Shown here: positions 794 to 58,750 of the stretch, piece by piece
How the letters are laid out: each line of letters begins with the position of its first letter
Numbering within the stretch: position 1 is the first letter of the stretch
Assembly: GCA_005879315.1 (NCBI GenBank)
Contig: VBLC01000046.1
Location: forward strand, 65,424 to 129,423
Reading direction: 5' to 3'
Length of the DNA stretch: 64,000 nucleotides
Source: Deltaproteobacteria bacterium
Lineage (GTDB): Bacteria > Myxococcota > Myxococcia > Myxococcales > 40CM-4-68-19
Notes under the pieces: model-generated
Told to the model about the DNA's origin: nothing
Databases searched by the model: none
The model's input: only the letters and a program-made list of their open reading frames with translations
Translations under genes and position numbers: made by a program

Positions 794-1276
794 ATGCCGC
801 GCATCGCCCTCTATCCCGGCTCGTTCGATCCCCCCACCAACGGCCATCTCAGCATCATCCAGCGCGGCCTGAAGATGTTCGACGGGCTGCTCGTCGCAGT
901 CCTGAAAAACCCCGCCAAGGACTCGCTCTTCTCCGTCGAGGAGCGGGTGGTCTTGCTCAAGGGCGCGGTCGGCGGCGACCCGCGCGTCACGCTCAAGACC
1001 TTCGAAGGGCTCCTGGTGAAGTTCGCCCAGCAGGAGAAGGTCAACACCGTCCTGCGCGGCCTGCGCGCGGTGAGCGACTTCGAGTACGAATTCCAGATGG
1101 CCAACATGAACCGCAAGCTCGACAAGGAGATCGAGACCCTTTTCCTCATGACCGGCGAAGACTACTTCTACATCTCGAGCCGCTTCGTTCGCGACGTGGC
1201 GCGACTGGGAGGCGACGTGACCGGCCTGGTCCCCGGCAACGTGCTGGCAGCGCTGCAGAAGAAGTTCAAGCGATGA
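794..1276 (+). CDS. coaD: phosphopantetheine adenylyltransferase
   Basis: [16 protein letters not shown] is the nucleotidyltransferase (T/H)xGH motif. The length (~160 aa) is like E. coli CoaD. Alternative starts are ATG 782 and TTG 755. Confidence 0.9.
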
Positions 1277-2472
1277 ACGCCATTGGCAGGCGGCTCTCGG
1301 AGGTGCGCGCCTCGGCCACGATGGCGATGACCGCGCGGGCCATCCAGCTGCGGCGCGAGGGTCGCGACATCGTCTCGCTCTCGGTGGGCGAGCCCGACTT
1401 CCCCGTCTTCCCCCACGTCGAGCAGGCGGTGGTCGAGGCGCTCCGTTCGGGCAAGACGAAGTACACGGCGCCGAACGGCATCGCGGAGCTGCGCGAGGCC
1501 ATCGCCGACTGGATGGCGCGCGAAGTGGGCATCCGCTGGCCCATCTCGCAGATCGTCGCGACCAGCGGAGCGAAGCAGGCCCTCTACAACGCCTGCATGG
1601 CACTGCTCGACGAAGGCGACGAGGCCATCATTCCCAACCCCTACTGGGTGAGCTACCCGGAGATGGTGCGGCTCGCCGGAGCCAAGCCGGTGGATCTGCA
1701 GTTGCGGCAGAGCGACGGCTGGGCGCCGCACGCGGCCGACCTCGAGCGCGTGCTCACGCCGCGCACGCGGCTCTTCATCTTCTCCAGCCCCTCCAATCCG
1801 ACCGGCGCGGTGTGGAGCGAAGACACCCTGCGCCGGCTCGCCCGCGTGCTCGAGCGCCACCCGCGCGTGGTCATTCTCTCCGACGACATCTACGACAAGC
1901 TCGTCTATGGCGGCGTGAAGGCGACCAACATCCTGCAGGTCGCCCCCGAGCTGCAGGCGCGCACCGTTCTGGTCAACGGTTGCTCGAAGGCCTACGCGAT
2001 GACCGGCCTGCGCCTCGGCTGGGCCTGCGGGCCGGCCGAGATCATCTCGGGCATGAACAAGGTGCAGGACGCCAGCACTTCGAACCCGAGCTCGCTCTCG
2101 CAGCACGCGGCGATCGCCGCTCTGCGCGGGCCGCAGGAGCCGCTCGAGGCGATGCGCGTGCAGTTCGAGAAGCGCCGCCATCTGATGGTCGACCTGCTCC
2201 GCAAGGTGCCGGGCGTCGAGGCGCACGAGCCCGACGGCGCGTACTACATCTTCGCCGACTTCTCCACGCTGCTCGGCAAGAAATACCGCGGCGAGAAGAT
2301 CGGCACGAGCTCGCGGCTGGCCGAGATCCTCCTCGAAGACTTCGGCGTGGCGACGGTGCAGGGGAGCGCTTTCGGCCGCGAGGGATTCCTGCGGCTCTCC
2401 TTCGCTACCTCCGAGCCCGACATCCGCAAGGCGATGGAGCGCGTAGCGCGCTGCGCGACCGCGGTGGAATGA
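1273..2472 (+). CDS. aspC: class-I PLP aminotransferase (aspartate aminotransferase-like)
   Basis: 399 aa with SNPTG and [16 protein letters not shown] (PLP-lysine motif). ATGA overlap with the coaD stop. Confidence 0.85.
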
Positions 2473-2486
2473 GCTTCGCGCTCTGA

Positions 2487-3896
2487 TCAGAGCCGATGGA
2501 TCTGCATCATCGACGCGCCGAAGGTCGGCCGGTTGGGCGGCACCGCCGAAGCGATGACGATCGCCTCGCCGCGCATCGCCTCTCCCGCTCCGACCAGCGT
2601 CTGGGCGATGGTGGAGATGAGGTCGTCGGTGGTCTCGAACGGCTTCGCCACTTTGCGCGCCGTCACTCCCCAGTAGAGCGCCATCCGCCGGTACGCGACC
2701 TCGGAGGCAGTGAAGGCGACGATGCGCGCCTGCGGCCGGTACTCGGCGATCTGCCGCGCCGTCTCGCCCGTGCGGGTATAGACGCAGATGGTGCCGATGC
2801 CCAGCTGCTGCGCCGCCGCCGCGCAGGCGCGCGCCACTGCCGTGGCGAAGGTGCTCTCGCCGCGGTCGAGCGTGGCCTCGGGCAGCGCCTGATAGCGCGC
2901 GCTTCGCTCCACCTCCTCGATGATGGCGGCCATGGTCCGCACCGCCTCGACCGGATGCGCTCCGGTCGCCGTCTCCGCGGAGAGCATCACCGAGTCCGCT
3001 CCGTCGAGGACGGCGTTGGCCACATCGCTCACCTCGGCGCGGGTCGGCTGGGGCGAGACGATCATGCTCTCCAGCATCTGCGTGGCGACGATAGCGATCT
3101 TTCCGTAGTAGTTGGTCCGCTCGATGGCGGTCTTCTGGATGAGCGGCACGCGCTCGAGCGGCATCTCCACGCCGAGATCGCCTCGCGCGATCATCACCCC
3201 TTCGGCCAGCTGGGCGATCTCGTCGATCCGGTCCACCGCCTGCGGCTTCTCCAGCTTGGCGATCACCGGCGTGGTCGGCGCATAGCGCTTGATCAGCCGC
3301 AGGTCGTCGGCGGAGCGGACGAAGCTCATCGCCAGATAATCGACCACGTGCTCGAGGCCGAACTTGAGGTCGTCGATGTCCTTGGGGGTGAGGGCGGGGA
3401 TGGAGACGGGCGTGCCGGGCAGGTTGATGCCCTTGTGATCGGAGACGATGCCGCCGACCAGCACGCGGCATTTCACCTCGCGCTCGGCGATGCCGATCAC
3501 CTCGAGGCGGATGGCGCCGTCGTTGACGAGCACCGGATCGCCCAGCGAGACGTCGTCGGGCAGGCCCTGGTAGGAGCAGGAGAAGCGCTGTGCGTTTCCC
3601 AGCAGATTCGGGTCGCTGGAGATGACCACCTCGCTGCCCGCTTCCAGGTGCGCCTTGCCGCCTTCGATCTTGCCGACGCGGATCTTCGGTCCTTGCAGGT
3701 CGAGCAAGAGCGCCACCGGCCGCCCCGCCAGGTCGGCCGCGCGGCGCACGGCGGTCATCGCGCGCAGGTGGTCCTCGTGCGTGCCGTGCGAAAAATTGAG
3801 GCGCGCCACGTCCATGCCGGCCTCGACCAGCTTGCTCAGCGTGGGCTCCTCGCGCGAGGCGGGCCCCATGGTGCAGATGATCTTCGCCTTGCGCAT
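2487..3896 (-). CDS. pyk: pyruvate kinase
   Basis: 469 aa with MRKAKIICTMGPAS, ARLNFSHG and MIARGDLGVEMP signatures. Confidence 0.95.
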   Translation of the reverse strand: MRKAKIICTMGPASREEPTLSKLVEAGMDVARLNFSHGTHEDHLRAMTAVRRAADLAGRPVALLLDLQGPKIRVGKIEGGKAHLEAGSEVVISSDPNLLGNAQRFSCSYQGLPDDVSLGDPVLVNDGAIRLEVIGIAEREVKCRVLVGGIVSDHKGINLPGTPVSIPALTPKDIDDLKFGLEHVVDYLAMSFVRSADDLRLIKRYAPTTPVIAKLEKPQAVDRIDEIAQLAEGVMIARGDLGVEMPLERVPLIQKTAIERTNYYGKIAIVATQMLESMIVSPQPTRAEVSDVANAVLDGADSVMLSAETATGAHPVEAVRTMAAIIEEVERSARYQALPEATLDRGESTFATAVARACAAAAQQLGIGTICVYTRTGETARQIAEYRPQARIVAFTASEVAYRRMALYWGVTARKVAKPFETTDDLISTIAQTLVGAGEAMRGEAIVIASAVPPNRPTFGASMMQIHRL

Positions 3897-3941
3897 GAAT
3901 CGCCGAGCCTAGGGGCAAGAACCCCAAGCCGCAAGCTACTG

Positions 3942-4487
3942 TCAGATGCCCTGCACGGGCGTGGGCGCGGCGGCGCTGCGCAGGCTGCGGGCCCCTCTCG
4001 GCTCTTCCAGTTCGGCGGGCGAGATCGCGACCGCCTCGAACATCGCCGCATCGGCGACGATGGGCGCGCCCGCCTCGAGCGCGAGCGAGAGCGCGTCGGC
4101 CAGCGGCGCCTCGATGCTCAGCTGTTGCGAGCCGCTCGACAAGATCAGGTGCGCGCGCAGCGCCGGGCCGGAGAGATCGTCGATCGAGGCGCGCAAAATC
4201 CGGCCACCCAGCGCTTCGATCGATTGCGAGAGCAGCGAGGGCGCGATCCTCGTCTTCAAACTGCGCTCGATCTGCGCCGCCTCGGCGCGGCCGAGCGGCA
4301 GGGGCAGTCGCCGCGCGCCGTCGTTTTCTCGGAGGATCAAGACCGGCATGCCGCCCTGGAGCCGCACCACCTGCTCCGCCTTCAGCTCGACGGCCGCCGT
4401 GACAGCCGCGGGTTGCAAGAGCTTGCAGAGCCCGCCGAGAGCGCAGCCGAGAAGAACGAGCAGGACGAAGCTGCCTCGCGGGACCAT
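3942..4487 (-). CDS. bifunctional-nuclease (DUF151/BFN)-like domain protein with lipoprotein-type signal
   Basis: The N-terminus FVLLVLLGC is lipobox-like. The core MPVLILRENDGARRLPLPLGRAEAAQI resembles the BFN-family pattern, and the downstream RPxTHD-like motif looks degenerate. Confidence 0.6.
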   Translation of the reverse strand: MVPRGSFVLLVLLGCALGGLCKLLQPAAVTAAVELKAEQVVRLQGGMPVLILRENDGARRLPLPLGRAEAAQIERSLKTRIAPSLLSQSIEALGGRILRASIDDLSGPALRAHLILSSGSQQLSIEAPLADALSLALEAGAPIVADAAMFEAVAISPAELEEPRGARSLRSAAAPTPVQGI

Positions 4488-4532
4488 CCTTGAAGGAAGG
4501 TAGCGTGCGCGCCGGCGGAAGGAAGCCCCGGC

Positions 4533-48367: not shown

Positions 48368-49252
48368 ATGGATGTTTTCTCGCTGGTGGCCGTCGGGCAG
48401 CGCGCCTATCTGCGCGACTCGGTCGTGCGCGCGGCGGAGGAGCTCGAGCTCGCCGAGGTGCTGCCGGCGACGGCGGAAGCGGCCGCGCGCAAGCTCGGCT
48501 TGCGGTCGCCGCACAGGCTCCTCCGGCTGCTCGAGGCGCTCGCGGTCCTCGACGAGGCGCGCCGCGAGGGCGATGTTTTTCACTTGCGCGGGCGGCCGCA
48601 CGCACCCGCGACTGCCGGTGCATGGGGACGGATCGCCGGGATCATCCGCGCTGACCGACCGCTCGCGGAACCGGCGGACGAGGATTCGCTGCGCCGCTTG
48701 CATCGACACCTCGAGCGCGCGGGCGCGGATGCCGCACGCGAGCTCTGGGCAAATCTGCCGGATGCACACGGGCCGATGCTCGACCTGGGCGGGGGCGCCG
48801 GAACGTACACCGCGGCATTTCTCGAGGCGCACCCGGGCGAAGACGCGGCCATCGCCGACAGGCCGCAGGTGCTCGAGCTGGCCCAGGTCAGCCGCGCACG
48901 GCTCTTGCCCATCGACCTGCTCGAAAGCGAGCTGCCGAAGGGCCAGCGCACCATCCTTCTCGCCAACGTCCTGCACCTCTTCGGCGAGAGCGATTGCAGG
49001 AAGATCCTCGCCAAGGCCGCTCTTGCGCTGGCGCCGGACGGCCTCCTCATCGTCAAGGACCTGCTCGTCGAGCCCGACCGCAGCGGCCCTGCAGAAGGGG
49101 TTCTCTTCGCTCTCAACCTGGCGCTCTTCACCAGCGCGGGAGACGTCCACGACCCGCTTGCGCTCGCCTCCTGGATGCGCGCCGCGGGCCTGCGCGAGCC
49201 GCGCCGCGTGCCTCTTTCCGGCTCGCTGGCGCTGGCAGCGGCTTCGCCTTGA
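48368..49252 (+). CDS. SAM-dependent O-methyltransferase-like protein
   Basis: N-terminal winged-helix/dimerisation-like region, SAM motif MLDLGGGAGTY and LANVLHLF. Confidence 0.75.
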   Translation: MDVFSLVAVGQRAYLRDSVVRAAEELELAEVLPATAEAAARKLGLRSPHRLLRLLEALAVLDEARREGDVFHLRGRPHAPATAGAWGRIAGIIRADRPLAEPADEDSLRRLHRHLERAGADAARELWANLPDAHGPMLDLGGGAGTYTAAFLEAHPGEDAAIADRPQVLELAQVSRARLLPIDLLESELPKGQRTILLANVLHLFGESDCRKILAKAALALAPDGLLIVKDLLVEPDRSGPAEGVLFALNLALFTSAGDVHDPLALASWMRAAGLREPRRVPLSGSLALAAASP

Positions 49253-49300
49253 CTTCGCCGGGCGCCGCTCTTAACTTGCGCCGCTTTCTCCAGAGCAGCC

Positions 49301-49873
49301 GTGGACGACCTCATCCTCAGCGTCGATGCCCTCGAGGAGGCGGACCAGCCTTTCGAGGCGGACCTCTCCCGCGAATTCCTCGACGAGGTTCTGCGTGCCG
49401 AGCCGGCGACGGAGTTCCACGCCGCCGGCGCGGCCCACCTGCGCGGCCGCGCCACGAAGATGGGCCGCGAGGTCCTGGCGCGCGCCAAGTTCACCGTGCC
49501 GCTCCAGGGGCATTGCAAGCGCTGCCTGAAGGGCGTGCAGCTCGATGAGCCCGTCGAGCTGGTGCGGGCGTACGTTCCCGCCGCGGAGCTGGTTCCGCAG
49601 CGCAAGCGCGCGGGCGATGTCTCCGAGGCGAGCTTCGAGCCCGAGCTGGTGGACGAGGAGGGATACCAGGGCAAGGAGATCGATCTGAGCCCGGCATTGC
49701 GCGAGCAGATCCTTCTCTCCGTCCCGCCCTCGCCGCTCTGCGACGAGCAGTGCAAAGGGCTCTGCCCGCGCTGCGGCAAGGATTTGAACGAAGTCGAGTG
49801 CGGCTGCGACCGCACGGTTGTGGACCCGCGCTGGGCGGCCCTGAAAGGCATCCAGCTGAAGAAGGAGAAGTGA
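49301..49873 (+). CDS. yceD: YceD/DUF177 family protein
   Basis: CKRC ... CDEQCKGLCPRCGKDLN motif and the conserved position upstream of rpmF. GTG start. Confidence 0.85.
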   Translation: MDDLILSVDALEEADQPFEADLSREFLDEVLRAEPATEFHAAGAAHLRGRATKMGREVLARAKFTVPLQGHCKRCLKGVQLDEPVELVRAYVPAAELVPQRKRAGDVSEASFEPELVDEEGYQGKEIDLSPALREQILLSVPPSPLCDEQCKGLCPRCGKDLNEVECGCDRTVVDPRWAALKGIQLKKEK

Positions 49874-49876
49874 TCG

Positions 49877-50059
49877 ATGGGCGTCCCGAAGAAGCGCACC
49901 AGCCGGCAGAAGCGCGATCAGCGGCGCGCGCACTGGAAAGCCATTGCTCCGAACGTAGGCAAATGCCCGAACTGCGGGGAGCCGATCCTGCCGCACCGCG
50001 CGTGCCCCAAGTGCGGGCAGTATCGCGGCAAGAGCGTGCAGAAGGCTTCAGAGGATTGA
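49877..50059 (+). CDS. rpmF: 50S ribosomal protein L32
   Basis: MGVPKKRTSRQKRDQRRAH...CPNCGEPILPHRACPKCG. Confidence 0.97.
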   Translation: MGVPKKRTSRQKRDQRRAHWKAIAPNVGKCPNCGEPILPHRACPKCGQYRGKSVQKASED

Positions 50060-50073
50060 TACGTCTGCGTGGT

Positions 50074-50146
50074 CGTGCTCGCCCTCGTCCTCGTACTCGA
50101 GAACGAGCACGTGCTCGAATTCGAGCACGACAACGAGCAGGAGCAC
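50074..50146. repeat. cluster of overlapping GTGCTC/GAGCAC palindromes in the rpmF-plsX spacer
   Basis: Perfect palindromes are CGAGCACGTGCTCG (50104-50117) and GTGCTCGAATTCGAGCAC (50111-50128). CTCGTACTCGAGAACGAG (50090-50107) is palindromic at 16 of 18 positions. Extra hexamer copies are at 50075-50080 and 50141-50146. Confidence 0.9.
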
Positions 50147-50152
50147 GAGCGC

Positions 50153-51169
50153 GTGATTGCTTTGGATGCCATGGGGGGCGATCTCGCTCCGGCCGCTACG
50201 GTCGAGGGCGCGCTTCGCGCGCATCGCGAGCGCGGGGTCGAAGTCCTGCTCGTCGGCGACGAGACGCGGCTGTCCCTCGAGCTGCGGCGGCTGGGAGCAG
50301 GCGAGACCGAGCTGCGCATCCACCATGCTTCCGAAGTCGTCGAGATGGACGAGCCGGCCGGGCAGGCATTGCGCAAGAAGAAGGACAGCTCGATCCGCGT
50401 CTGCTTCGATCTGTGCAAGTCGGGCGAGGCCAGCGGCATGGTCTCGGCCGGCAACAGCGGCGCGGTGATGGCCGGAGCGCTCTTCGTCCTTGGCCGGCTG
50501 GAGGGCGTCGATCGGCCCTGCATCGGCGGCTCGCTCCCCACGCTCGGGGGATGCGGCCGCGCGGTGCTGGTCGACATGGGCGCGAATGTCGAATGCACGG
50601 CGGAGCAGATCGTCCAGTTCGCGCTGATGGGCGAGGTCTACGCCCGCCGCATTCTCGGCGTGGTCCGCCCGCGCGTCGGCGTCGTCGCCAACGGCGAGGA
50701 AGAAGGGAAGGGGACCGATCTCACCCGCGCCGCCGCCACCGCGCTGCGCAGGCCGGAGAGCGGCGTCGACTTCCGCGGCTACGTCGAGGGCAAGGACGTC
50801 TTCGGCGGCGCGTTCGACGTCATTGCCACCGACGGCTTCACCGGCAACGTCCTCCTCAAGACGGCCGAGGGGGCGGTCTGGGCCTTCGGCCAGCTGCTCA
50901 AGCGCCAGATCAAGGTCTCGCCGCTGGCGAGCGCCGGCGCGCTGCTCCTGAAGTCTTCCCTCGAGCAAGTGAGGAAGCGGGTCGATTACGAGGAGGTGGG
51001 CGGCGCTCCGCTGCTCGGCGTCCGCGGCGTCGGCTTGATCGCGCACGGACGCTCCACTCCCCGGGCCATTCTCAATGCACTATCCGGAGCAGAGGCTTTT
51101 GCAGTAGAGCGTCTCCAAGATGAGCTGAGCGGCGCGGCGAAGCGGGCGAGCGCCCTCTTTTCGCACTGA
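50153..51169 (+). CDS. plsX: phosphate acyltransferase PlsX
   Basis: IALDAMGGD and VSAGNSGA. GTG 50153 with AGGAG 9 nt upstream. The 28-codon extension from 50069 is judged to be an artefact of the palindromes. Confidence 0.9.
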   Translation: MIALDAMGGDLAPAATVEGALRAHRERGVEVLLVGDETRLSLELRRLGAGETELRIHHASEVVEMDEPAGQALRKKKDSSIRVCFDLCKSGEASGMVSAGNSGAVMAGALFVLGRLEGVDRPCIGGSLPTLGGCGRAVLVDMGANVECTAEQIVQFALMGEVYARRILGVVRPRVGVVANGEEEGKGTDLTRAAATALRRPESGVDFRGYVEGKDVFGGAFDVIATDGFTGNVLLKTAEGAVWAFGQLLKRQIKVSPLASAGALLLKSSLEQVRKRVDYEEVGGAPLLGVRGVGLIAHGRSTPRAILNALSGAEAFAVERLQDELSGAAKRASALFSH

Positions 51170-51210
51170 TCGTTATACTGCGCCGCGGCTTTTTTCCTGG
51201 GGAGCACAGA

Positions 51211-52200
51211 ATGCAGCGTTCGCGCATCGTCGGCACCGGGACGTACCTCCCCGAGAAGGTCGTCACCAACGACGACATGGTGAAGGTCTACGGGGTCGAG
51301 ACCAGCGACGCCTGGATCCGGGAGCGCACCGGCATCGGCGCGCGCCGCGTCGCCGCACCCGGCGAGGCCACCAGCGACATGGCGACCGCCGCCTCGAAGA
51401 GAGCGCTGAAGATGGCGGGCATCCGGCCCGAGGACGTCGACATGATCATCTGCGGGACGGTGACGCCCGACATGCCGTTCCCCGCGGCGGCGACGCTGGT
51501 GCAGGCCAAGCTGGGCGCAAACCACGCCGCCTGTTTCGACGTCAGCGCCGCCTGCGCCGGCTCGCTCTTTGCGCTGGCCATCGGCGATTCCTTCATCAAG
51601 AGCGGCGTCGCCAAGTCGGTGCTGGTGATCGGCGCCGAGATCCTCACCCGCATCATGGATTGGAAGGACCGCAACACCTGCGTGCTCTTCGGCGATGGCG
51701 CGGGCGCGATGGTGCTCGTCCCCGAGACGCGTGAGGCCCACGGCCTGCTCTCCACGCACCTGCACACCGACGGCACGCAGTGGGACATCCTCAACATCCC
51801 CGGTGGCGGCAGCAAGAAGCCCTTCAGCATCGAGGTGATGGAGAAGCGCGAGCAGTACGTGAAGATGAACGGCCGCGAGGTCTACAAGACCGCCGTGCGG
51901 GTGCTGGATCAGTGCTCGCGCGAGGCGCTGGAGCGCAATGGCTACCGGACGCAGGACGTGACCCACGTCATCGCCCACCAGGCCAACCTCCGCATCCTCG
52001 AAGGCGTGATGAAGCGGCTGGAGATCCCTCTGGGAAAGTGCCATCTCAACATCGAGGAGGTGGGCAACACCTCCTCGGCCTCGGTGCCGCTCACGCTCGA
52101 CCAGGCCAACCGCAAAGGCGCTCTCAAGGACGGCGATCTGATCCTGATGATGGCCATCGGCGGCGGCATGGCGTGGGGCAGCGCGCTCTTGCGCTGGTGA
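51211..52200 (+). CDS. fabH: 3-oxoacyl-ACP synthase III
   Basis: DVSAACAGS (active-site Cys), AHQANLRI and GGGMAWG. Confidence 0.95.
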   Translation: MQRSRIVGTGTYLPEKVVTNDDMVKVYGVETSDAWIRERTGIGARRVAAPGEATSDMATAASKRALKMAGIRPEDVDMIICGTVTPDMPFPAAATLVQAKLGANHAACFDVSAACAGSLFALAIGDSFIKSGVAKSVLVIGAEILTRIMDWKDRNTCVLFGDGAGAMVLVPETREAHGLLSTHLHTDGTQWDILNIPGGGSKKPFSIEVMEKREQYVKMNGREVYKTAVRVLDQCSREALERNGYRTQDVTHVIAHQANLRILEGVMKRLEIPLGKCHLNIEEVGNTSSASVPLTLDQANRKGALKDGDLILMMAIGGGMAWGSALLRW

Positions 52201-52207
52201 GGATGCG

Positions 52208-53161
52208 ATGAAGCTCGCGTTCGTCTTTCCCGGACAAGGCTCGCAGTACGTCGGCATGGGCCAGGCGCTCGCCCGCGAGTACCCCGAGGCCCGCGCGGCG
52301 CTCGACGAGGCCGACGCGGCGCTCAAGGGCGGCCTGTTGCGCATGATGTCCGACGGCCCCGAAGAAGAGCTGCGCAAGACCGCCAACACGCAGCCGGCCA
52401 TCCTCGCCGTCAGCGTCGCGGCCCACCGCGCGCTGGTGCGCGAGGCGGGCGGGACGTTCAAGTTCCCTGCCTTCCATGCCGGCCATTCGCTGGGCGAGTA
52501 CTCGGCGCTGGTCGCGGCGGGCGCCCTGAGCCTCTCCGATGCAGTGCGCGCCGTCCGCGCGCGCGGCACCTTCATGCAGGAGGCAGTGCCGGCCGGCGAG
52601 GGCGCGATGGCCGCCATTCTCGGCCTCGAGGCGCCGCTGGTGAAGGAGGCCTGCGCCGAGGCCGCCAGGCAGGAGAAGGGCCGCGTCGTCGCTCCCGCCA
52701 ACTACAACTCGCCGGAGCAGACGGTGATCGCCGGGCACGCCGCCGCGGTCGATCGCGCCATCGTTCTCTGCAAGGAGAAAGGCGCCAAGCGCGCCATGGC
52801 GTTGCCGGTGAGCGCGCCTTTTCATTGCTCGCTGATGTCGCCGGTGCAGCCGCGCCTCGCGGAAGTGCTCGGCACGGTGCAGTTCAAGCAGACCAGCATC
52901 CCGGTGATCGCAAACGCCACCGCCGAGGCGAACACCGACCCGGCCCTGATCGTGCCTCTCTTGCTCACCCAGGTGACCGCGCCCGTGCGATGGGTAGAGA
53001 CCATCCAGAAGATGGCGCTCAACGGCGTCGACACCTTGATCGAGCTGGGTCCCGGGAAAGTGCTGACCGGCCTCACGCGGCGCATCGACAAGGGGCTGCG
53101 CGCCTACGCGGTCGAGGACCCCGCCGGGCTCAAGGCGGTCCTGGCGGAGGTGTTCCGGTGA
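52208..53161 (+). CDS. fabD: malonyl-CoA:ACP transacylase
   Basis: FVFPGQGSQ and GHSLGEYSAL. Confidence 0.95.
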   Translation: MKLAFVFPGQGSQYVGMGQALAREYPEARAALDEADAALKGGLLRMMSDGPEEELRKTANTQPAILAVSVAAHRALVREAGGTFKFPAFHAGHSLGEYSALVAAGALSLSDAVRAVRARGTFMQEAVPAGEGAMAAILGLEAPLVKEACAEAARQEKGRVVAPANYNSPEQTVIAGHAAAVDRAIVLCKEKGAKRAMALPVSAPFHCSLMSPVQPRLAEVLGTVQFKQTSIPVIANATAEANTDPALIVPLLLTQVTAPVRWVETIQKMALNGVDTLIELGPGKVLTGLTRRIDKGLRAYAVEDPAGLKAVLAEVFR

Positions 53162-53661
53162 GGCTCTCCGTTCTTGCCGCCGCGCTGCTCGCGCTCGCCT
53201 GCTCCGACTCGCAGCGGGTGAACAAGAAGCTGCGCGACGAGGCCTGCACCAAGAACCTCGACTGCTATTACGGCCTCGAATGCGTCGACACCGCGCAGCT
53301 GGCCGACGGCGGTCCCGTCCCCGCCGCCAAGACCTGCCAGTTCAAATCCTTCGGCGATTGCGAGGGCGAGGGCCTCGGCCCGAACGGCCAGCCGCAATGC
53401 CTGTCGGGCCAGAAATGCCGCGACAGCCGCTGTACGGTGCAGTGCGCCGGCTCGAAGGACTGCAAGGAGAACGAGATCTGCAAGATCGGCATCTGCCAGA
53501 AGGGCGGCACGGCGCTCAACCAGTGCTACGACAACCGCGATTGCGCCTGGCCGCAGACCTGCTTCTATGGGCAGTGCGTGACCCGGACCGAGACCATGCG
53601 CTGCCGAAGCGATCTCGATTGCGGATACGGTTTTCGCTGCATCAATGGGCTCTGTCAGTAG
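53158..53661 (+). CDS. Cys-repeat lipoprotein of unknown function in the fabG position
   Basis: GTG 53158 overlaps the fabD TGA (GTGA), with GGAGG 7 nt upstream. Lipobox LLALAC. 20 further Cys residues fall in C-x5-C-x5-C-x4-C units ([54 protein letters not shown]). Confidence 0.7.
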
Positions 53662-53725
53662 AGGATTTTTTTGGGAACGCGTGCTACAAGCCCGCGTTTC
53701 GTACGCAACCGAAAGGATCGGTTAC

Positions 53726-53959
53726 ATGTCCGTCGAGGCGAAGGTCAAGAGCATCATCGCGGAGCAGCTCGGTGTCGGGGAGGACGAAATCAAGGCCGAG
53801 AGCGCGTTCATCGAGGATCTCGGCGCCGACTCTCTCGACATCGTCGAACTGGTGATGGCGATGGAAGAGGAATTCGAGGTGGAGATTCCCGATGAAGAGG
53901 CTGAGCACATCAAGACGGTGCAGGACGCCGTCAACTTCATCAACGAGCACAAGAAGTAG
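53726..53959 (+). CDS. acpP: acyl carrier protein
   Basis: [21 protein letters not shown] (phosphopantetheine Ser). 77 aa. Confidence 0.97.
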
Positions 53960-53992
53960 GCTCGGGCATCGCTCCTCCGGTCAGAGCAACGC

Positions 53993-55240
53993 ATGCAGCG
54001 TTTAGAACGCAGAGTCGTCGTCACCGGGCTGGGTCTCGTCACCCCTCTGGGCATCGGCACCAAGGAGTCCTGGGAGGCGGCCATCGCCGGCAAGAGCGGC
54101 ATCGGCCCCATCACCCGCTTCGACGTCAAGGACCTGCCCTGCCGCATCGCCGGCGAGGTCAAGGGATTCGAGCCCGCGCTCTACATGGACAAGAAGGAGG
54201 CGCGGCGCAACGACCTCTTCATCCAGTTCGGCCTCGCCGCCACCCACATCGCGCTGCTCGACGCGGGCCTGCCCCTGGACAAGCCGCTCGGCGAGCGCAC
54301 CGGCGTCATCGTCGGCTCGGGAATGGGCGGTCTCTCGACTCTCGAAGAGACGCACCTCACGGCCGTCAACAAGGGGCACCGGCGGGTGAACCCCTTCTTC
54401 ATCCCCTCCATCATCGTCAACCTGGTGGGCGGCCAGGTCTCCATCAAGTACGGCGCGGGGGGAGTGAACTTCGCGCCGGTGTCGGCCTGCGCCACCGGCA
54501 ACCACGCCATCGGCGAGTCGCTGCGACATCTGCAGCACGGCGACGTCGACAGGATGATCACCGGCGGAGCGGAAGCCACCATCACCTTGCTGGGCATCTC
54601 CGGCTTCACCGCGGCGCGCGCCGTCTCGGAGCGGAACGACGCGCCGGAGAAGGCTTCGCGGCCCTTCGACAGGGACCGCGACGGATTCGTCGCCGGGGAG
54701 GGCTCTGGCATCCTCATCCTCGAGGATCTGGAGCACGCAAAGAAACGCGGCGCGCGCATCTACTGCGAGCTGATCGGCTACGGCGCAACCGCCGACGCGT
54801 ACCACATCACCGCGCCCTCGGGCGAAGGCGCCGAGCGCGCCATGAGACTCTGTCTCGAGGACGCCGGCCTGCGGCCCGAGGAGGTGCAGTACGTCAACGC
54901 TCACGGCACCTCGACGCCGGTGGGCGACGTTGCCGAGATCAAGGCCATCAAGAACGTCTTCGGCCCCTGGGCGAAGAAGGGGCTGATGGTCAGCTCCACC
55001 AAGAGCATGACCGGACATCTGCTCGGCGCGGCGGGCGGCGTCGAGGGGGCCTTCACCGCACTGGCGCTGCATCACGGGATCGTTCCGCCGACCATCAACG
55101 TCGACAATCAGGATCCGGAGTGCGATCTCGACGTGGTGCCGAACAAGGCGCGCGAGGTACCGATCAAGACGGCCATCTCGAACTCGTTCGGCTTCGGCGG
55201 CACCAATGCGGTGGTCGCCTTTCAGCGCTTCGAGGAGTGA
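53993..55240 (+). CDS. fabF: 3-oxoacyl-ACP synthase II
   Basis: SACATGNHAIG, NAHGTSTP and KSMTGHLLGAAG. Confidence 0.95.
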   Translation: MQRLERRVVVTGLGLVTPLGIGTKESWEAAIAGKSGIGPITRFDVKDLPCRIAGEVKGFEPALYMDKKEARRNDLFIQFGLAATHIALLDAGLPLDKPLGERTGVIVGSGMGGLSTLEETHLTAVNKGHRRVNPFFIPSIIVNLVGGQVSIKYGAGGVNFAPVSACATGNHAIGESLRHLQHGDVDRMITGGAEATITLLGISGFTAARAVSERNDAPEKASRPFDRDRDGFVAGEGSGILILEDLEHAKKRGARIYCELIGYGATADAYHITAPSGEGAERAMRLCLEDAGLRPEEVQYVNAHGTSTPVGDVAEIKAIKNVFGPWAKKGLMVSSTKSMTGHLLGAAGGVEGAFTALALHHGIVPPTINVDNQDPECDLDVVPNKAREVPIKTAISNSFGFGGTNAVVAFQRFEE

Positions 55241-56970
55241 AGCGCGTCGCGGCGCGCCAGCTCGAGCTGCTGCCGCGCGATCTGCAGCTGAGGGTCCAGC
55301 TCCAGAGCGCGCTGGAAGCGCTCGATGGCCTCGCCGTAGCGGGCGCCGCGCGCGAGCAGGATGCCGAGATCGAGCTGCGTCGCCGCGTCTCGGGGCGCCA
55401 GCTGCTGGGCGCGGAGCAGATGAGCCAGCGCCTCGTCGGTCCGGCCGACTTCGGCGAGCGCGACGCCGAGCTCCCGCTGCAGATCGGGGAAATCCGGGTG
55501 GGCGGGCTCGAGCGGCTCGAGCAGCCGCACCGCTTCCGCCGTTCGCCCCAGCTGCGTCAGGGTCGCGGCCATCGTCGGCGCCACCAGGGTCGGGTCGGGC
55601 TCGACCGCGAGCGCTTGTTCGAACCAGCGGAGCGCCTCTCGCGGCTGGCCGCGCCGCAGCGCGATCAGCCCCCGCGCATTGAGGGCGCGGCCGGCGGTCG
55701 GCCACTGCCGCAGCACGGCGCGATAGAGCGCTTCGGCCTCCTCGAGCTTGCCCTGCGACAAGCGCTGATTGGCGAGCGCCTGCAGCGCGAGCGGATCGTC
55801 GGGCGAGACTTCCAGCGCGTGCGAGAAGAGCGCGCCGTCGTCGCGCCAGTAGCTCTCTTGCCGCAGCGTGAGGACGAAGAGGGCGCAGACGGCCGCCGCT
55901 GCCGTCGCCCAGAGCGCTGCCCGCCGCGGCAAGCTGAACGACAGCGCGAAGAAAGGGCCGATGAGCGGCAGATAGCTGTAGCGGTCGGCCACGGACTGCG
56001 AGCCTGCCTGGACGACGCCGATCACCGGCAGCAGCATCACCAGGAACCAGGCCCAGCCGACCGCGAGCTGCGGCCGCTCGCGCAGTTGCCAGAGGCACAA
56101 GCCGGTGATGGCGACGAGGAGCGCGGCCGCGGCCAGCAGCGGCCCCCAGTGGATTTCAGGATGCAGCGGATAGTGGACCGCGAGGCGCGCCGGCCAGACG
56201 GCCATCTTTAGATAAATCGCGTACCCCTCGATCGCATCGGCGATGCGCGAGGAAAGCGGCAGCGGCGAGATCGCTCTTCCCGAACTCTGGGCGCGCAGCG
56301 TGAGGAGGCTGGCCGCGGCCGAAAGCAAGAAGAGCGGAAGCTTCTCGCGCAAGAGCGGCGGCCGCCGCAAAGGCCAGACGTCGAGCAGAAGCAGCACGAA
56401 CGGGGCCGTCACCAGCATCGGCTTCGAGGCCAGCCCCGCCGCGAAGAGCGCGCAGACCAAGAGGTATCGCGCCGCGCCCGGCTTGCGCACCCAGCCGAGC
56501 CAGGCGACCAGCATGAGGAGAAAGAAAAAGGCGGAGAGCACGTCCTTGCGTTCGGAGATCCAGACCACCGACTCGACGCGCAGCGGATGCACCGCGAACA
56601 ACGCCGCCGTCAGCAGGCTGGGCCAGTAGAGCCGCGTCGCCTGCAAGAGGAAGAGGAAAAGCAGGGCGCCGTTGGCCGCGTGAAGCAGCACGCTCGACAG
56701 GTGATGTCCCGCCGGCGCCGATCCCCACAGCGTCCAGTCGAGCGTGTGCGAGAGCCAGGTGAGCGGGAACCAGTTGGCGGCGTACGTGCGGGTGAAGGCC
56801 CAGCGCATGGTCGCGGCGGTGAAGCCCTGCTGGATGTGCGGATTGCCGGTGACGTAATCGGCGTCGTCGATGCCGGCGAAGGGGAATCCGACCGCCGCGG
56901 AGAAGGCGCTCAGGGAAAGGGCGGCGACGAGGGCGGCGCCGAGCCATTGCGCACCTCGGCTCTTCTCCAC
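55222..56970 (-). CDS. polytopic membrane protein with C-terminal TPR repeats (TMTC/PMT-like O-glycosyltransferase candidate)
   Basis: About 9-11 TM helices. The early loop DDADYVTGNPH and a DUF1736-like segment (HPLRVESVVWISERKDVL) are followed by about 6 TPR units. GTG 56970 chosen, downstream of AAGGAGG. Confidence 0.65.
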   Translation of the reverse strand: MEKSRGAQWLGAALVAALSLSAFSAAVGFPFAGIDDADYVTGNPHIQQGFTAATMRWAFTRTYAANWFPLTWLSHTLDWTLWGSAPAGHHLSSVLLHAANGALLFLFLLQATRLYWPSLLTAALFAVHPLRVESVVWISERKDVLSAFFFLLMLVAWLGWVRKPGAARYLLVCALFAAGLASKPMLVTAPFVLLLLDVWPLRRPPLLREKLPLFLLSAAASLLTLRAQSSGRAISPLPLSSRIADAIEGYAIYLKMAVWPARLAVHYPLHPEIHWGPLLAAAALLVAITGLCLWQLRERPQLAVGWAWFLVMLLPVIGVVQAGSQSVADRYSYLPLIGPFFALSFSLPRRAALWATAAAAVCALFVLTLRQESYWRDDGALFSHALEVSPDDPLALQALANQRLSQGKLEEAEALYRAVLRQWPTAGRALNARGLIALRRGQPREALRWFEQALAVEPDPTLVAPTMAATLTQLGRTAEAVRLLEPLEPAHPDFPDLQRELGVALAEVGRTDEALAHLLRAQQLAPRDAATQLDLGILLARGARYGEAIERFQRALELDPQLQIARQQLELARRDALHSSKR

Positions 56971-57026
56971 GGTCGCGATGATACCTCCTTGCCCCTGGCG
57001 CAGGCGCGCGATATGAGCGCTGCTCG

Positions 57027-58283
57027 ATGGAAAAGCCGCTCCGCGAGGTGGATCCGGAGATCGCCCGTCTGATCCGCGAGGAGACCGAGCGCCAGGCAAA
57101 CGGCCTCGAGCTCATCGCCAGCGAGAACTTCGTCTCCGAGGCGGTCCTCGAGGCGCAGGGCTCGACGCTGACCAACAAGTACGCCGAGGGCCTGCCCGGC
57201 AAGCGCTACTACGGCGGCTGCGAAGTGGTCGACAAGGTCGAGCAGCTGGCCATCGACCGCGCCAAGACGCTCTTCGGCGCCGAGCACGCCAACGTCCAGC
57301 CGCACGCCGGATCGCAGGCGAACATGGCGACGTACTTCGCCCTGCTGCGGCCCGGCGACCGCATCATGTCGCTCAGCCTCGCGCAGGGCGGGCATCTCAC
57401 CCACGGCTCGCCGGTGAACTTCTCCGGCAAGCTCTTCGAGATCCACCACTACGGGCTCGATCCGAAGACGGAGCAGATCGACTTTCCCGCGGCGCTGAAG
57501 CTGGCGCGCGAGGTGAAGCCGCGCATGCTCTTGTGCGGCGCCTCCGCCTATCCGCGCACGCTCGATTTCGTCAGGCTGCGCGAGATCGCCGACGAGGTCC
57601 ACGCGATGATGGTCTGCGACATCGCCCACATCGCCGGGCTGGTGGCGGTCGGGCTCCATCCCAGCCCGGTGCCGCTCAGCGAGGCGGTCACCACCACCAC
57701 CCACAAGACGCTGCGCGGTCCGCGCAGCGGGCTGATCCTCTGCAAGCAGGAGCACGCCAAGGCCATCGACTCGAATGTCTTCCCCGGCATCCAGGGCGGG
57801 CCGCTCGAGCACATCATCGCCGCCAAGGCGGTCGCCTTCGCCGAGGCGCTGCGGCCCTCGTTCAAGGAATACCAGCAGCGCATCCTCGACAACGCGCAGG
57901 CGCTCGCTCAGGGCCTGATCGAGGGCGGGCTGCGGCTGGTCGCCGGCGGCACCGACACGCATCTGATGTTGTGCGATCTGCGCCCCAAGAAGCTCACCGG
58001 CAAGATCGCGGAGCAGGTGCTGCAGCGGGCGCACATCACCACCAACAAGAACATGATCCCGGGCGACCCCGAGAAGCCGTTCGTCACCAGCGGCCTGCGG
58101 CTGGGCACGCCGGCGCTCACCACCCGGGGCATGGGACCCAGGGAGATGAAGCAGATCGCGCGGCTGATCGTGCGCGTCCTCGACAAACCCGAGGACGCGG
58201 CCGAGATCGAGCGCGTCCGCGGCGAGGTGCACGAGCTGGCGCGCCAGTTTCCGCTCTACGCGCGCCGCCTGGCCCGTGTATGA
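57027..58283 (+). CDS. glyA: serine hydroxymethyltransferase
   Basis: [11 protein letters not shown] and [12 protein letters not shown] (PLP-lysine). Confidence 0.97.
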
Positions 58284-58750
58284 AGTGTCCGTTCTGCGCC
58301 GAGCTGGAGAACAAGGTGATCGACTCCCGCCTCTCCAACCAGGGCGTGGTCATCCGCCGCCGCCGCGAGTGCCTCGGCTGCCAGCGCCGCTTCACCACCT
58401 ACGAGCGGGTCGAGGAAATCCTCCCCATGGTGGTGAAGAAGGACGGCCGCCGCGAGGCGTACGATCGCCAAAAGATTTTGGAGGGCCTGCGCCTCGCCTG
58501 CCAGAAGCGGCCGGTCTCGGCGGAGCAGCTCGAGGAAGTCGCCGACGGCATCGAGCGCAGACTTCAGGAGATGGGCGACAAGGAAGTGCGCAGCTCGGTG
58601 ATCGGCGAGGCGGTGATGCGGGAACTGGCCAGGCTCGACGAAGTCGCCTACGTGCGCTTCGCCAGCGTCTACCGCTCCTTCAAGGACCTGGGCGAATTCA
58701 TGAGCGAGCTGAAGGAGCTCATCTCCGAGCGCAAAGCGCAGAAGAAGTGA
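58280..58750 (+). CDS. nrdR: transcriptional repressor NrdR
   Basis: MKCPFC...[12 protein letters not shown] zinc ribbon plus an ATP-cone. ATGA overlap with the glyA stop. Confidence 0.95.

Follow-up and report, generated by a model that had tools for sequence, protein, structure and literature searches.

A predicted Cys-repeat lipoprotein gene in the place of fabG, overlapping fabD, in an uncultured clade of soil Myxococcota

The fatty-acid synthesis cluster plsX-fabH-fabD-fabG-acpP-fabF is among the most conserved gene orders of bacteria. We analyzed a stretch of 64,000 nt from Deltaproteobacteria bacterium, a member of the Myxococcota (assembly GCA_005879315.1, contig VBLC01000046.1, positions 65,424 to 129,423 of the forward strand); the whole stretch, at its full length, is called the window throughout. 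It carries plsX, fabH, fabD, acpP and fabF, all in the canonical order, as judged by Pfam and NCBIfam equivalog matches, but not the fabG gene expected between fabD and acpP. An open reading frame (ORF) at 53158-53661 (+), named X in this report, sits there instead. What does X encode, how firmly is it bound to this position, and what could it have to do with fatty-acid synthesis?

The answer reached is that X is probably a conserved, predicted envelope lipoprotein, which replaces fabG directly after fabD in one uncultured soil clade and whose dose is tied to that of FabD. The statements on the identity of X and on its coupling to fabD, taken by themselves, are held with high confidence.

X and the fabG position

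The end of the fabD stop codon (53161) and the ATG of acpP (53726) are separated by 564 nt, and the sole credible ORF across this gap is X, of 167 aa, closed by a TAG at 53659-53661. A first-pass annotation of the window, made from its letters alone, had described the gap and its single ORF in these terms, and the coordinates agree. It had also pointed to the overlap of the X start with the fabD stop (GTGA) and to a GGAGG 7 nt upstream; both are read directly in the sequence (Table 1). By sequence criteria, such a junction, together with a Shine-Dalgarno (SD) site internal to the upstream gene, defines a translationally coupled gene pair. Ribosomes ending the translation of fabD would re-initiate on X, and the output of X would in this way be tied to that of FabD.

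Since long ORFs arise by chance in DNA of 69% GC, such as that of the window, the coding reality of X was tested. The GC content at third codon positions is 0.88 in X and 0.92 in fabD. Homologues of X form 68 clusters, of 132-220 aa and 47-86% identity, and the ratio of non-synonymous to synonymous substitution rates (dN/dS, Nei-Gojobori) is 0.06-0.2 in close pairs, with dS between 0.19 and 0.5, more distant pairs being saturated. An alignment of 67 sequences has 26 invariant columns, among which are 18 of the 21 Cys (the remaining three are at least 90% conserved) and the non-Cys positions G39, G111, R127, D128, G138, Q139, D152 and D154. X also passes the threshold of the Pfam family DUF7107 (PF23416), scoring 37.9 bits where the gathering score is 24.6 (E 2.3e-9, residues 95-141), and a DUF7107 match at E<=0.01 is obtained for all of the 26 aligned orthologues and for all of 11 distant homologues. 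On these measures X is judged a real, conserved and translated gene under purifying selection. An untranslated ORF, one of the cases that the annotation had named as refuting its proposal, is contradicted by this selection, as far as sequence data can tell. No paralogue of X is present in the window.

Sister lineages were sought with FabD, but this search was saturated by the X clade itself, the best 120 matches all being at least 79% identical. They were then found by means of the slower-evolving AcpP, the contexts being fetched for AcpPs 87-91% identical. Three sister lineages were examined, represented by a 2-Mb contig, an "Anaeromyxobacteraceae" metagenome-assembled genome (MAG) and a "Myxococcaceae" MAG, and all three have fabG, a short-chain dehydrogenase/reductase (SDR) gene of 248-254 aa, between fabD and acpP (loci L040-L045). 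The complete order yceD-rpmF-plsX-fabH-fabD-fabG-acpP-fabF-glyA-(nrdR)-ribD is seen in L040 and L042; in L044 and L045, from the "Myxococcaceae", fabH-fabD-fabG-acpP-fabF is kept and the genes further upstream and downstream differ. Gene order on both sides of the slot is the same in these canonical clusters and in the X loci, down to glyA-nrdR-ribD, and in both arrangements the gene after fabD overlaps or abuts the fabD stop, which sister fabG genes do by 4 nt (ATGA), by 1 nt (TGATG) or by direct abutment (TGAATG). The difference is confined to the gene itself, an SDR in the sisters and a predicted exported lipoprotein of 167 aa here. With fabG at the same position and between the same flanks in the sisters, X is concluded, from comparative gene order, to have displaced fabG in one clade of Myxococcota. 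The term "fabG slot", already used in the annotation, is therefore strictly right.

X is no fatty-acid synthesis enzyme, nor can it stand in for FabG. The ORF had been called too short for an SDR, and this holds, with 167 aa against about 245 and no match to adh_short. The statement that the window encodes no short-chain dehydrogenase was likewise upheld by FabG queries: no SDR was found in the 64 kb, where the best tblastn match of E. coli FabG had an E of 0.89, and three myxobacterial FabG proteins produced no match to the window at 1e-3. No adh_short gene lies in the approximately 9 kb past each window end, and around the slot there is no SDR within about 62 kb upstream and about 19 kb downstream. 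A diverged SDR nearby was rejected as a candidate: the window, all X-bearing loci and the 9 kb or so beyond the window ends contain none. X as a relic or overprint of fabG was rejected as well, because the matches obtained by tblastx and blastn between 53101-53760 and three sister fabG genes are short and lie in non-coding frames of both genes, as GC-rich noise. FabG catalyzes an essential step of type II fatty-acid synthesis. Because of this, and because X cannot supply ketoacyl-ACP (acyl carrier protein) reductase activity, it can soundly be inferred that fabG must be encoded elsewhere in the genome.

Table 1. Coordinates of X, its parts and the surrounding fab genes in the window
Feature	Position	Strand	Evidence or remarks
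plsX	50069..51169	+	Pfam FA_synthesis, E 6e-100; gene calls of relatives
fabH	51211..52200	+	Pfam ACP_syn_III and ACP_syn_III_C
fabD (malonyl-CoA:ACP transacylase), invariant upstream partner of X	52208..53161	+	TIGR00128, 341 bits (cut-off 260.9)
GGAGG, SD site of X	53146..53150	+	7 nt upstream of GTG, inside the last fabD codons (..AEVFR-stop)
GTGA junction	53158..53161	+	X start over fabD stop by 4 nt: GTG 53158-53160, TGA 53159-53161
X coding sequence, Cys-repeat lipoprotein precursor (predicted), DUF7107 family	53158..53661	+	sequence; Pfam; 68 homologue clusters; dN/dS
X, signal peptide and lipobox L-A-L-A-C	53158..53202	+	Cys15 (53200-53202) predicted lipidated N-terminus; helix at residues 3-16 in model
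X, Lys-rich tether, 14 residues	53203..53244	+	low-confidence part of model (pLDDT, predicted local distance difference test, <50 at residues 16-19)
X, module 1, aa 30-60, C-x5-C-x5-C-x17-C	53245..53337	+	strands 40-45 and 57-62 in model
X, module 2, aa 68-92, C-x12-C-x5-C-x4-C	53359..53433	+	hairpin 85-88/91-94 in model
X, module 3, aa 96-113	53443..53496	+	DUF7107 match 95-141; hairpin 106-109/112-115 in model
X, module 4, aa 123-140, most conserved	53524..53577	+	R127, D128, G138, Q139 and Cys invariant in 67 sequences
X, module 5, aa 149-166	53602..53655	+	weak TIGR04201 match at 149-166
GTGCTACAAG, conserved spacer motif	53681..53690	+	about 25 aligned spacers; candidate TG-extended -10 of acpP promoter
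acpP	53726..53959	+	NF002149, 122 bits
fabF	53993..55240	+	TIGR03150, 626 bits

Conservation of the fabD-X pair

X is found directly after fabD on about 40 independent contigs, all from MAGs of uncultured soil Myxococcota, and the overlap measures 4 nt in nearly all of them. The related genome records are without exception MAGs of uncultured "Myxococcales" or "Deltaproteobacteria bacterium", mostly from soil surveys to judge by their isolate labels; two peptide patterns, run against 185,579 species representatives, found no orthologue of X in cultured organisms. In the 29 loci mapped by tblastn, the order is plsX-fabH-fabD-X-acpP-fabF(-glyA) wherever the contig extends far enough, and no SDR is present in their flanks. 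The junction reads GTGA (ATGA once) in 26 of 27 loci, and GAGG occupies the same SD place in as many; the exception to the overlap is L027, which has the most distant X of the first tier (42% identity), with a gap of 10 nt and a purine-rich site of its own. The divergent P0063 subgroup (L048, L049) keeps the arrangement too, with the 4-nt overlap. Its loci lack plsX, so that rpmF and fabH are neighbours; the order, seen in L048 (3004-6004), is yceD-rpmF-fabH-fabD-X-acpP.

The assembly collection has 1341 blocks that list an AcpP identical to that of the window; the X-bearing lineage is therefore common in the environment. Ten contexts were obtained through this AcpP, from 24 contigs, two of the contexts duplicating contigs already in the set, and in all ten AcpP follows X in the same order and with the same 4-nt overlap. 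The comparison of fab synteny in relatives, proposed in the annotation as a check, thus finds fabD-X in every close relative recovered, over the approximately 40 contigs, and an insertion absent from relatives, which would have pointed to a recent rearrangement, is not what is seen.

The conserved partner of X, as read from variant loci, is fabD rather than the slot or acpP, because L046, L047 and L050 keep fabD-X without acpP downstream. In L050, where X is about 58% identical, its start and the fabD stop share 1 nt (TAGTG). An exhaustive profile search over 1.84 billion representatives yielded no more than 145 clusters with E<=1e-3, of which 6 reached E<=1e-30; a second tier emerging from it consists of lipoproteins of about 150 aa with the same five-module plan. 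Two loci of this tier, L046 and L047, were recovered, and in both an X-like gene of 30-33% identity comes directly after a fabD which is 46-52% identical and does not belong to any fab cluster. The L047 junction is an ATGA overlap, and its locus (1188-4520) has no fabH upstream and no acpP downstream, the next gene being a glycosyltransferase of the PMT_2 family. In L046 (4-749) the X-like gene starts with a TTG located 22 nt inside fabD and preceded by GGAGG; again there is no acpP downstream, and a convergent gene for a TIG-domain protein comes next. The FabD of L047 is 50-56% identical to every FabD compared, those of X-bearing loci and of fabG-bearing sisters alike. Since homologues of 30% identity also follow fabD in unrelated contexts, the linkage may be older than the clade. 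The distribution of the pair is patchy, and both an old origin with losses and a transfer are histories that may account for it.

In L050 (125-4302), fabD-X is followed by an extracytoplasmic function (ECF) sigma factor and a MacA/MacB/ABC-type exporter in the place of acpP-fabF, and this exporter belongs to the same architecture class as LolCDE.

The spacer between X and acpP measures 64 nt in the window (53662-53725), among the shortest within a range of 63-165 nt over the loci. Some 25 loci share the motif CTTG-N~17-GTGCTACAAG-NCCGCGCCAG, after which comes the acpP SD site, GAAAGGA; the CTTG is found about 17 nt upstream of GTGCTACAAG in most loci, and the copy in the window is without this upstream half. 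A similar element, GCTATAGG, precedes acpP in Myxococcaceae-type loci. The motif is a candidate acpP promoter, with a -35 and a TG-extended -10 element, or else an operator, and acpP may be transcribed by read-through as well as from this promoter. The annotation had proposed that X is co-expressed with the lipid synthesis genes. For fabD and X this appears firm, to judge by their junction; for X and acpP it is less so, because acpP probably has a promoter of its own in the spacer. Over 49000-58500, an Rfam scan detected no RNA family and a sigma-70 consensus scan no promoter, and terminator-like sites were no more numerous than in shuffled controls, with no terminator after X.

Lipoprotein signals, cysteine modules and relatives of X

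X contains 21 Cys, one of which, Cys15, is that of the lipobox, so that the earlier count of a lipobox and 20 further Cys is correct. The spacings between them are 14, 5, 5, 17, 7, 12, 5, 4, 3, 5, 5, 4, 9, 5, 5, 4, 8, 5, 5 and 4 residues. With a signal peptide and a lipobox, X has the sequence features by which bacterial lipoproteins, the substrates of Lgt, LspA and Lnt, are recognized, a positive n-region and a hydrophobic h-region before a lipobox defined as [LVI][ASTVI][GAS]C. Of 95 family members, 83 have a strict lipobox and most of the others a relaxed one; exactly 20 further Cys are found in 70 of the 83 members with a strict lipobox, and the tether is 13-14 residues long in 80 of 94. 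The description of X as an exported, disulfide-rich lipoprotein is well supported, at the level of prediction, by these family-wide features. The precursor would be exported by the Sec pathway, modified with diacylglyceryl, cleaved at Cys15 and N-acylated by the three enzymes just named, and the other 20 Cys would form 10 periplasmic disulfides; five β-hairpin modules would thereby be held as a rigid string, attached through a tether that is short and flexible.

In M. xanthus, a Lys at position +2 marks inner-membrane lipoproteins and an Ala at +7 matrix lipoproteins (PMC3222651). The +2 residue of the X family is Q, A, S or E, never K, and no +7 Ala was found. X, which has neither residue, would probably be sorted to the outer membrane, and this is our best guess for its location, by analogy with that species.

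The C-x5-C-x5-C-x4-C units described in the annotation were found at residues 96-113, 123-140 and 149-166. Modules 1 and 2 are regarded, from their spacing, as degenerate units of the same kind, so that X consists of five four-Cys modules in all. The last loop of module 1 holds a variable insert rich in Ala, Gly and Pro, which reaches about 50 residues in some relatives. Module 4 has the pattern CYDNRDCxWPxTCFYGQC, and X ends one residue past its last Cys. Two AlphaFold2 models were obtained, with a pLDDT of 73.8 and 74.7, the deeper alignment of 67 sequences barely raising the score. Both display five equivalent modules, each made of a short turn at x-D-C and a β-hairpin across Cys3-x4-Cys4. 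Because conservation outside the Cys is strong, above all in module 4, the sequences suggest that X has a specific partner.

DUF7107 is an uncharacterised double four-Cys module, which X matches over modules 3-4. Most of the strong DUF7107 proteins recovered in this analysis are long and secreted, with many repeats and a fused enzyme, whereas X is a minimal lipoprotein of five modules with a fixed gene position. In the long relatives, which carry up to dozens of copies of the module, the fusion partner is a non-specific endonuclease, a trypsin-like peptidase or a PPC domain; such an organization suggests a general extracellular spacer or binding array. Endonuclease_NS, Trypsin_2, PPC and ZU5 are the domains recorded in the long proteins P0314, P0328, P0340 and P0329. 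The literature searched held no paper on DUF7107 and nothing on Dickkopf-like domains in myxobacteria, and, by title and abstract, the papers on Myxococcus fabG, acpP or fabD included none on a myxobacterial fab cluster.

The closest described repeat is that of TIGR04201 (Myxo_Cys_RPT/TraA), which is likewise Cys-rich, about 20 residues long and myxobacterial, and with which module 5 aligns. With 16.5 bits, X falls short of the cut-off of 25 and matches in module 5 only, and no more than 14 of 26 orthologues match at E<=0.01 (best E 6.6e-6). The repeats of TraA, the outer-membrane-exchange receptor of M. xanthus, are described as extracytoplasmic, predicted to be disulfide-bonded and proposed to form a rigid stalk (PMC3325183). 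Unlike TraA, X has neither a PA14 domain nor a MYXO-CTERM tag, and a predicted N-terminal lipid anchor is found instead. Dickkopf_N (PF04706) has a similar Cys spacing; the X-like protein of L047 (30.3 bits) and P0313 (26.4 bits) pass its cut-off of 25, and X, at 18.0 bits, falls under it.

Folds of the colipase, Dkk, MIT1 and knottin type head the Foldseek lists of both models, no functional parallel (Wnt antagonism, lipase cofactor) being implied. The top neighbours, all non-significant, are Dkk1 CRD2, double inhibitor cystine knot (ICK) toxins, MIT1, Dkk4-N, procolipase and squash inhibitors. For these models of moderate confidence, template modelling (TM) scores are 0.2-0.4 for multi-module matches and reach 0.6-0.7 only locally, over just 20-40 residues; the neighbours are generic small disulfide-rich folds. 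A profile search of the PDB with X yielded a single match, the Ascaris carboxypeptidase A inhibitor 3fju_B, with an E of 0.75. The search of the Cys repeat by profile and by structure, which the annotation had recommended, therefore succeeded in part: the repeat belongs to DUF7107, above threshold, and has no significant counterpart among solved structures.

Possible roles of X and other features of the locus

For the role of X, we tentatively propose a structural or ligand-binding lipoprotein of the envelope, a spacer or adaptor whose amount would scale with membrane-lipid synthesis. Several observations weigh against this proposal, or against the wider picture of an envelope lipoprotein dosed with FabD. 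Elimination and analogy are the grounds for a structural or adaptor role, and the high conservation of non-Cys residues, especially in module 4, exceeds the needs of a passive spacer. The sorting rules were taken from a different family of Myxococcota; transcription, translation, lipidation, disulfides and localisation of X are all predictions. X is known from uncultured hosts only. The SD site and the overlap lie inside the fabD coding sequence, so their conservation is partly owed to FabD. Foldseek returned no significant PDB neighbour for either model of X, with best E values of 0.13 and 0.24, and fabG was located in no genome of the clade, the reach around the slot of the window being about 62 kb upstream and 19 kb downstream.

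X could also be a neutral hitch-hiker, if a rearrangement in the ancestor of the clade had carried fabG away and put an unrelated gene, for a lipoprotein, in a strongly expressed operon; the position would since have been inherited only, with no meaning for lipid synthesis. Such a history would agree with the lack of any evident biochemical link between fatty-acid synthesis, which is cytoplasmic, and a protein predicted to be exported, and with the variation of other neighbours, such as the cargo between fabF and glyA, or plsX, missing in L048; divergence is also quicker in X than in its neighbours, identities being 42-86% for X and 65-91% for FabD. It is nevertheless unlikely, if worth reckoning with, given the survival of the fabD-X junction in L050, L046 and L047, all without acpP downstream, and its persistence down to 30% identity of X and about 50% of FabD, with the stop/start overlap kept or recreated every time and X under strong purifying selection. 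A coupling to fabD so tight, so deeply conserved and so specific would find an explanation in supply and demand, if X were a very abundant outer-membrane lipoprotein, similar to Lpp in role and not in sequence, or a lipid-interacting factor with a colipase/Dickkopf-like fold, locked to FabD so as to match lipoprotein load and acyl supply. Each lipoprotein molecule takes three acyl chains (Lgt, Lnt), X lies just before acpP in a cluster which is highly expressed in model bacteria, and Dkk1 CRD2, procolipase and colipase are among the top, non-significant Foldseek neighbours. The abundance of X is an assumption, however, the fold matches are non-significant (E > 0.1, TM 0.2-0.4), X has no lipid-binding motif, and we know of no comparable coupling of fabD with a lipoprotein described in other bacteria; we regard this explanation as decidedly improbable. 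Slightly less so, and still quite unlikely, is that fabD and X make up a functional unit, in which an exported lipoprotein, kept at a fixed ratio to the first committed transacylase of fatty-acid synthesis, would serve the homeostasis of envelope lipids and lipoproteins; X may in that case act as a major acyl-chain sink, as an outer-membrane lipid-handling factor or as a sensor.

Two further readings start from the Cys themselves. A protease inhibitor, or a toxin-like knottin array, shielding the envelope of a predatory, protease-secreting bacterium, is very improbable: 3fju_B, the sole PDB sequence match (E 0.75), does share the motif C-x-SD-x-DC-x-x-G-x-x-C with X, Foldseek does list squash trypsin inhibitors and double-ICK toxins (local TM 0.6-0.7 over 20-40 residues), and the C-terminus, conserved, ends one residue past the last Cys, but none of these matches is statistically significant, matches of this kind being usual for any small disulfide-rich module, no reactive-site loop can be identified, and the linkage to fabD is left without a reason. 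If X remained cytoplasmic and bound metal, as a Cys-rich partner either of FabD or of the fatty-acid synthesis machinery, its strict adjacency and coupling to fabD and its very high Cys content would be accounted for. This is scarcely credible in view of a hydrophobic signal sequence and a lipobox Cys conserved family-wide, of Cys spaced by x5/x5/x4 with no CxxC metal-binding pairs, and of the occurrence of the same module in secreted multidomain proteins; the related TraA repeats, too, are described as extracytoplasmic (PMC3325183).

A whole and common soil lineage has swapped the gene of an essential reductase for that of a predicted exported lipoprotein, within a highly conserved cluster. 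The persistence of X beside fabD through wide divergence points to selection for the co-dosage of a cytoplasmic enzyme and an envelope protein, and the replacement of fabG, together with this lasting link, would surprise a specialist of lipid synthesis. If functional, the link would bear on the matching of membrane-lipid supply to envelope assembly, and a true functional unit would couple cytoplasm and envelope by a device for which no bacterium is known to provide a precedent; if not functional, the locus is a clean case of replacement in an operon slot with translational coupling kept. In the literature searched, we came across no account of a lipoprotein gene at the fabG position. What is new is the clade-wide, tightly coupled arrangement, the fab cluster and the type of Cys-repeat envelope protein, a catalogued Pfam family, being known. 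The locus also provides the first reproducible genomic context for the DUF7107 module, and X is a compact, five-module member of that family, suited to structural work.

P0069, a protein of a Deltaproteobacteria MAG with the annotation ACP S-malonyltransferase, has the same sequence as the FabD of the window (100% identity). On the other side of the cluster, the gene between fabF and glyA differs among loci. In the window (55222-57099, -) it encodes a protein with an N-terminal half that is hydrophobic by sequence and with C-terminal TPR repeats; in L008 (2220-4574, -), L037 and L038 it is a YfhO-like protein of 768-785 aa, and in L025 (8654-10981, +) a PAS histidine kinase, while L001, L002 and L006 have no gene there. 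A conserved third partner, either a glycosyltransferase or a TPR protein, was rejected as a candidate, this cargo being variable and absent in many loci.

At the upstream border, an imperfect palindrome of 86 nt (50068-50153) lies between the rpmF stop and plsX, with arms of 43 nt made of CGTGCTCG/CGAGCACG units and a predicted RNA fold of -54.9 kcal/mol (z -4.3). In relatives such as L001 the gap from rpmF to plsX is only 16 nt; the palindrome is therefore a lineage-specific insertion. It lengthens the plsX ORF to 366 aa, against 342, and because PlsX has 342 aa in the relatives, the true start of plsX in the window is probably located downstream of it.

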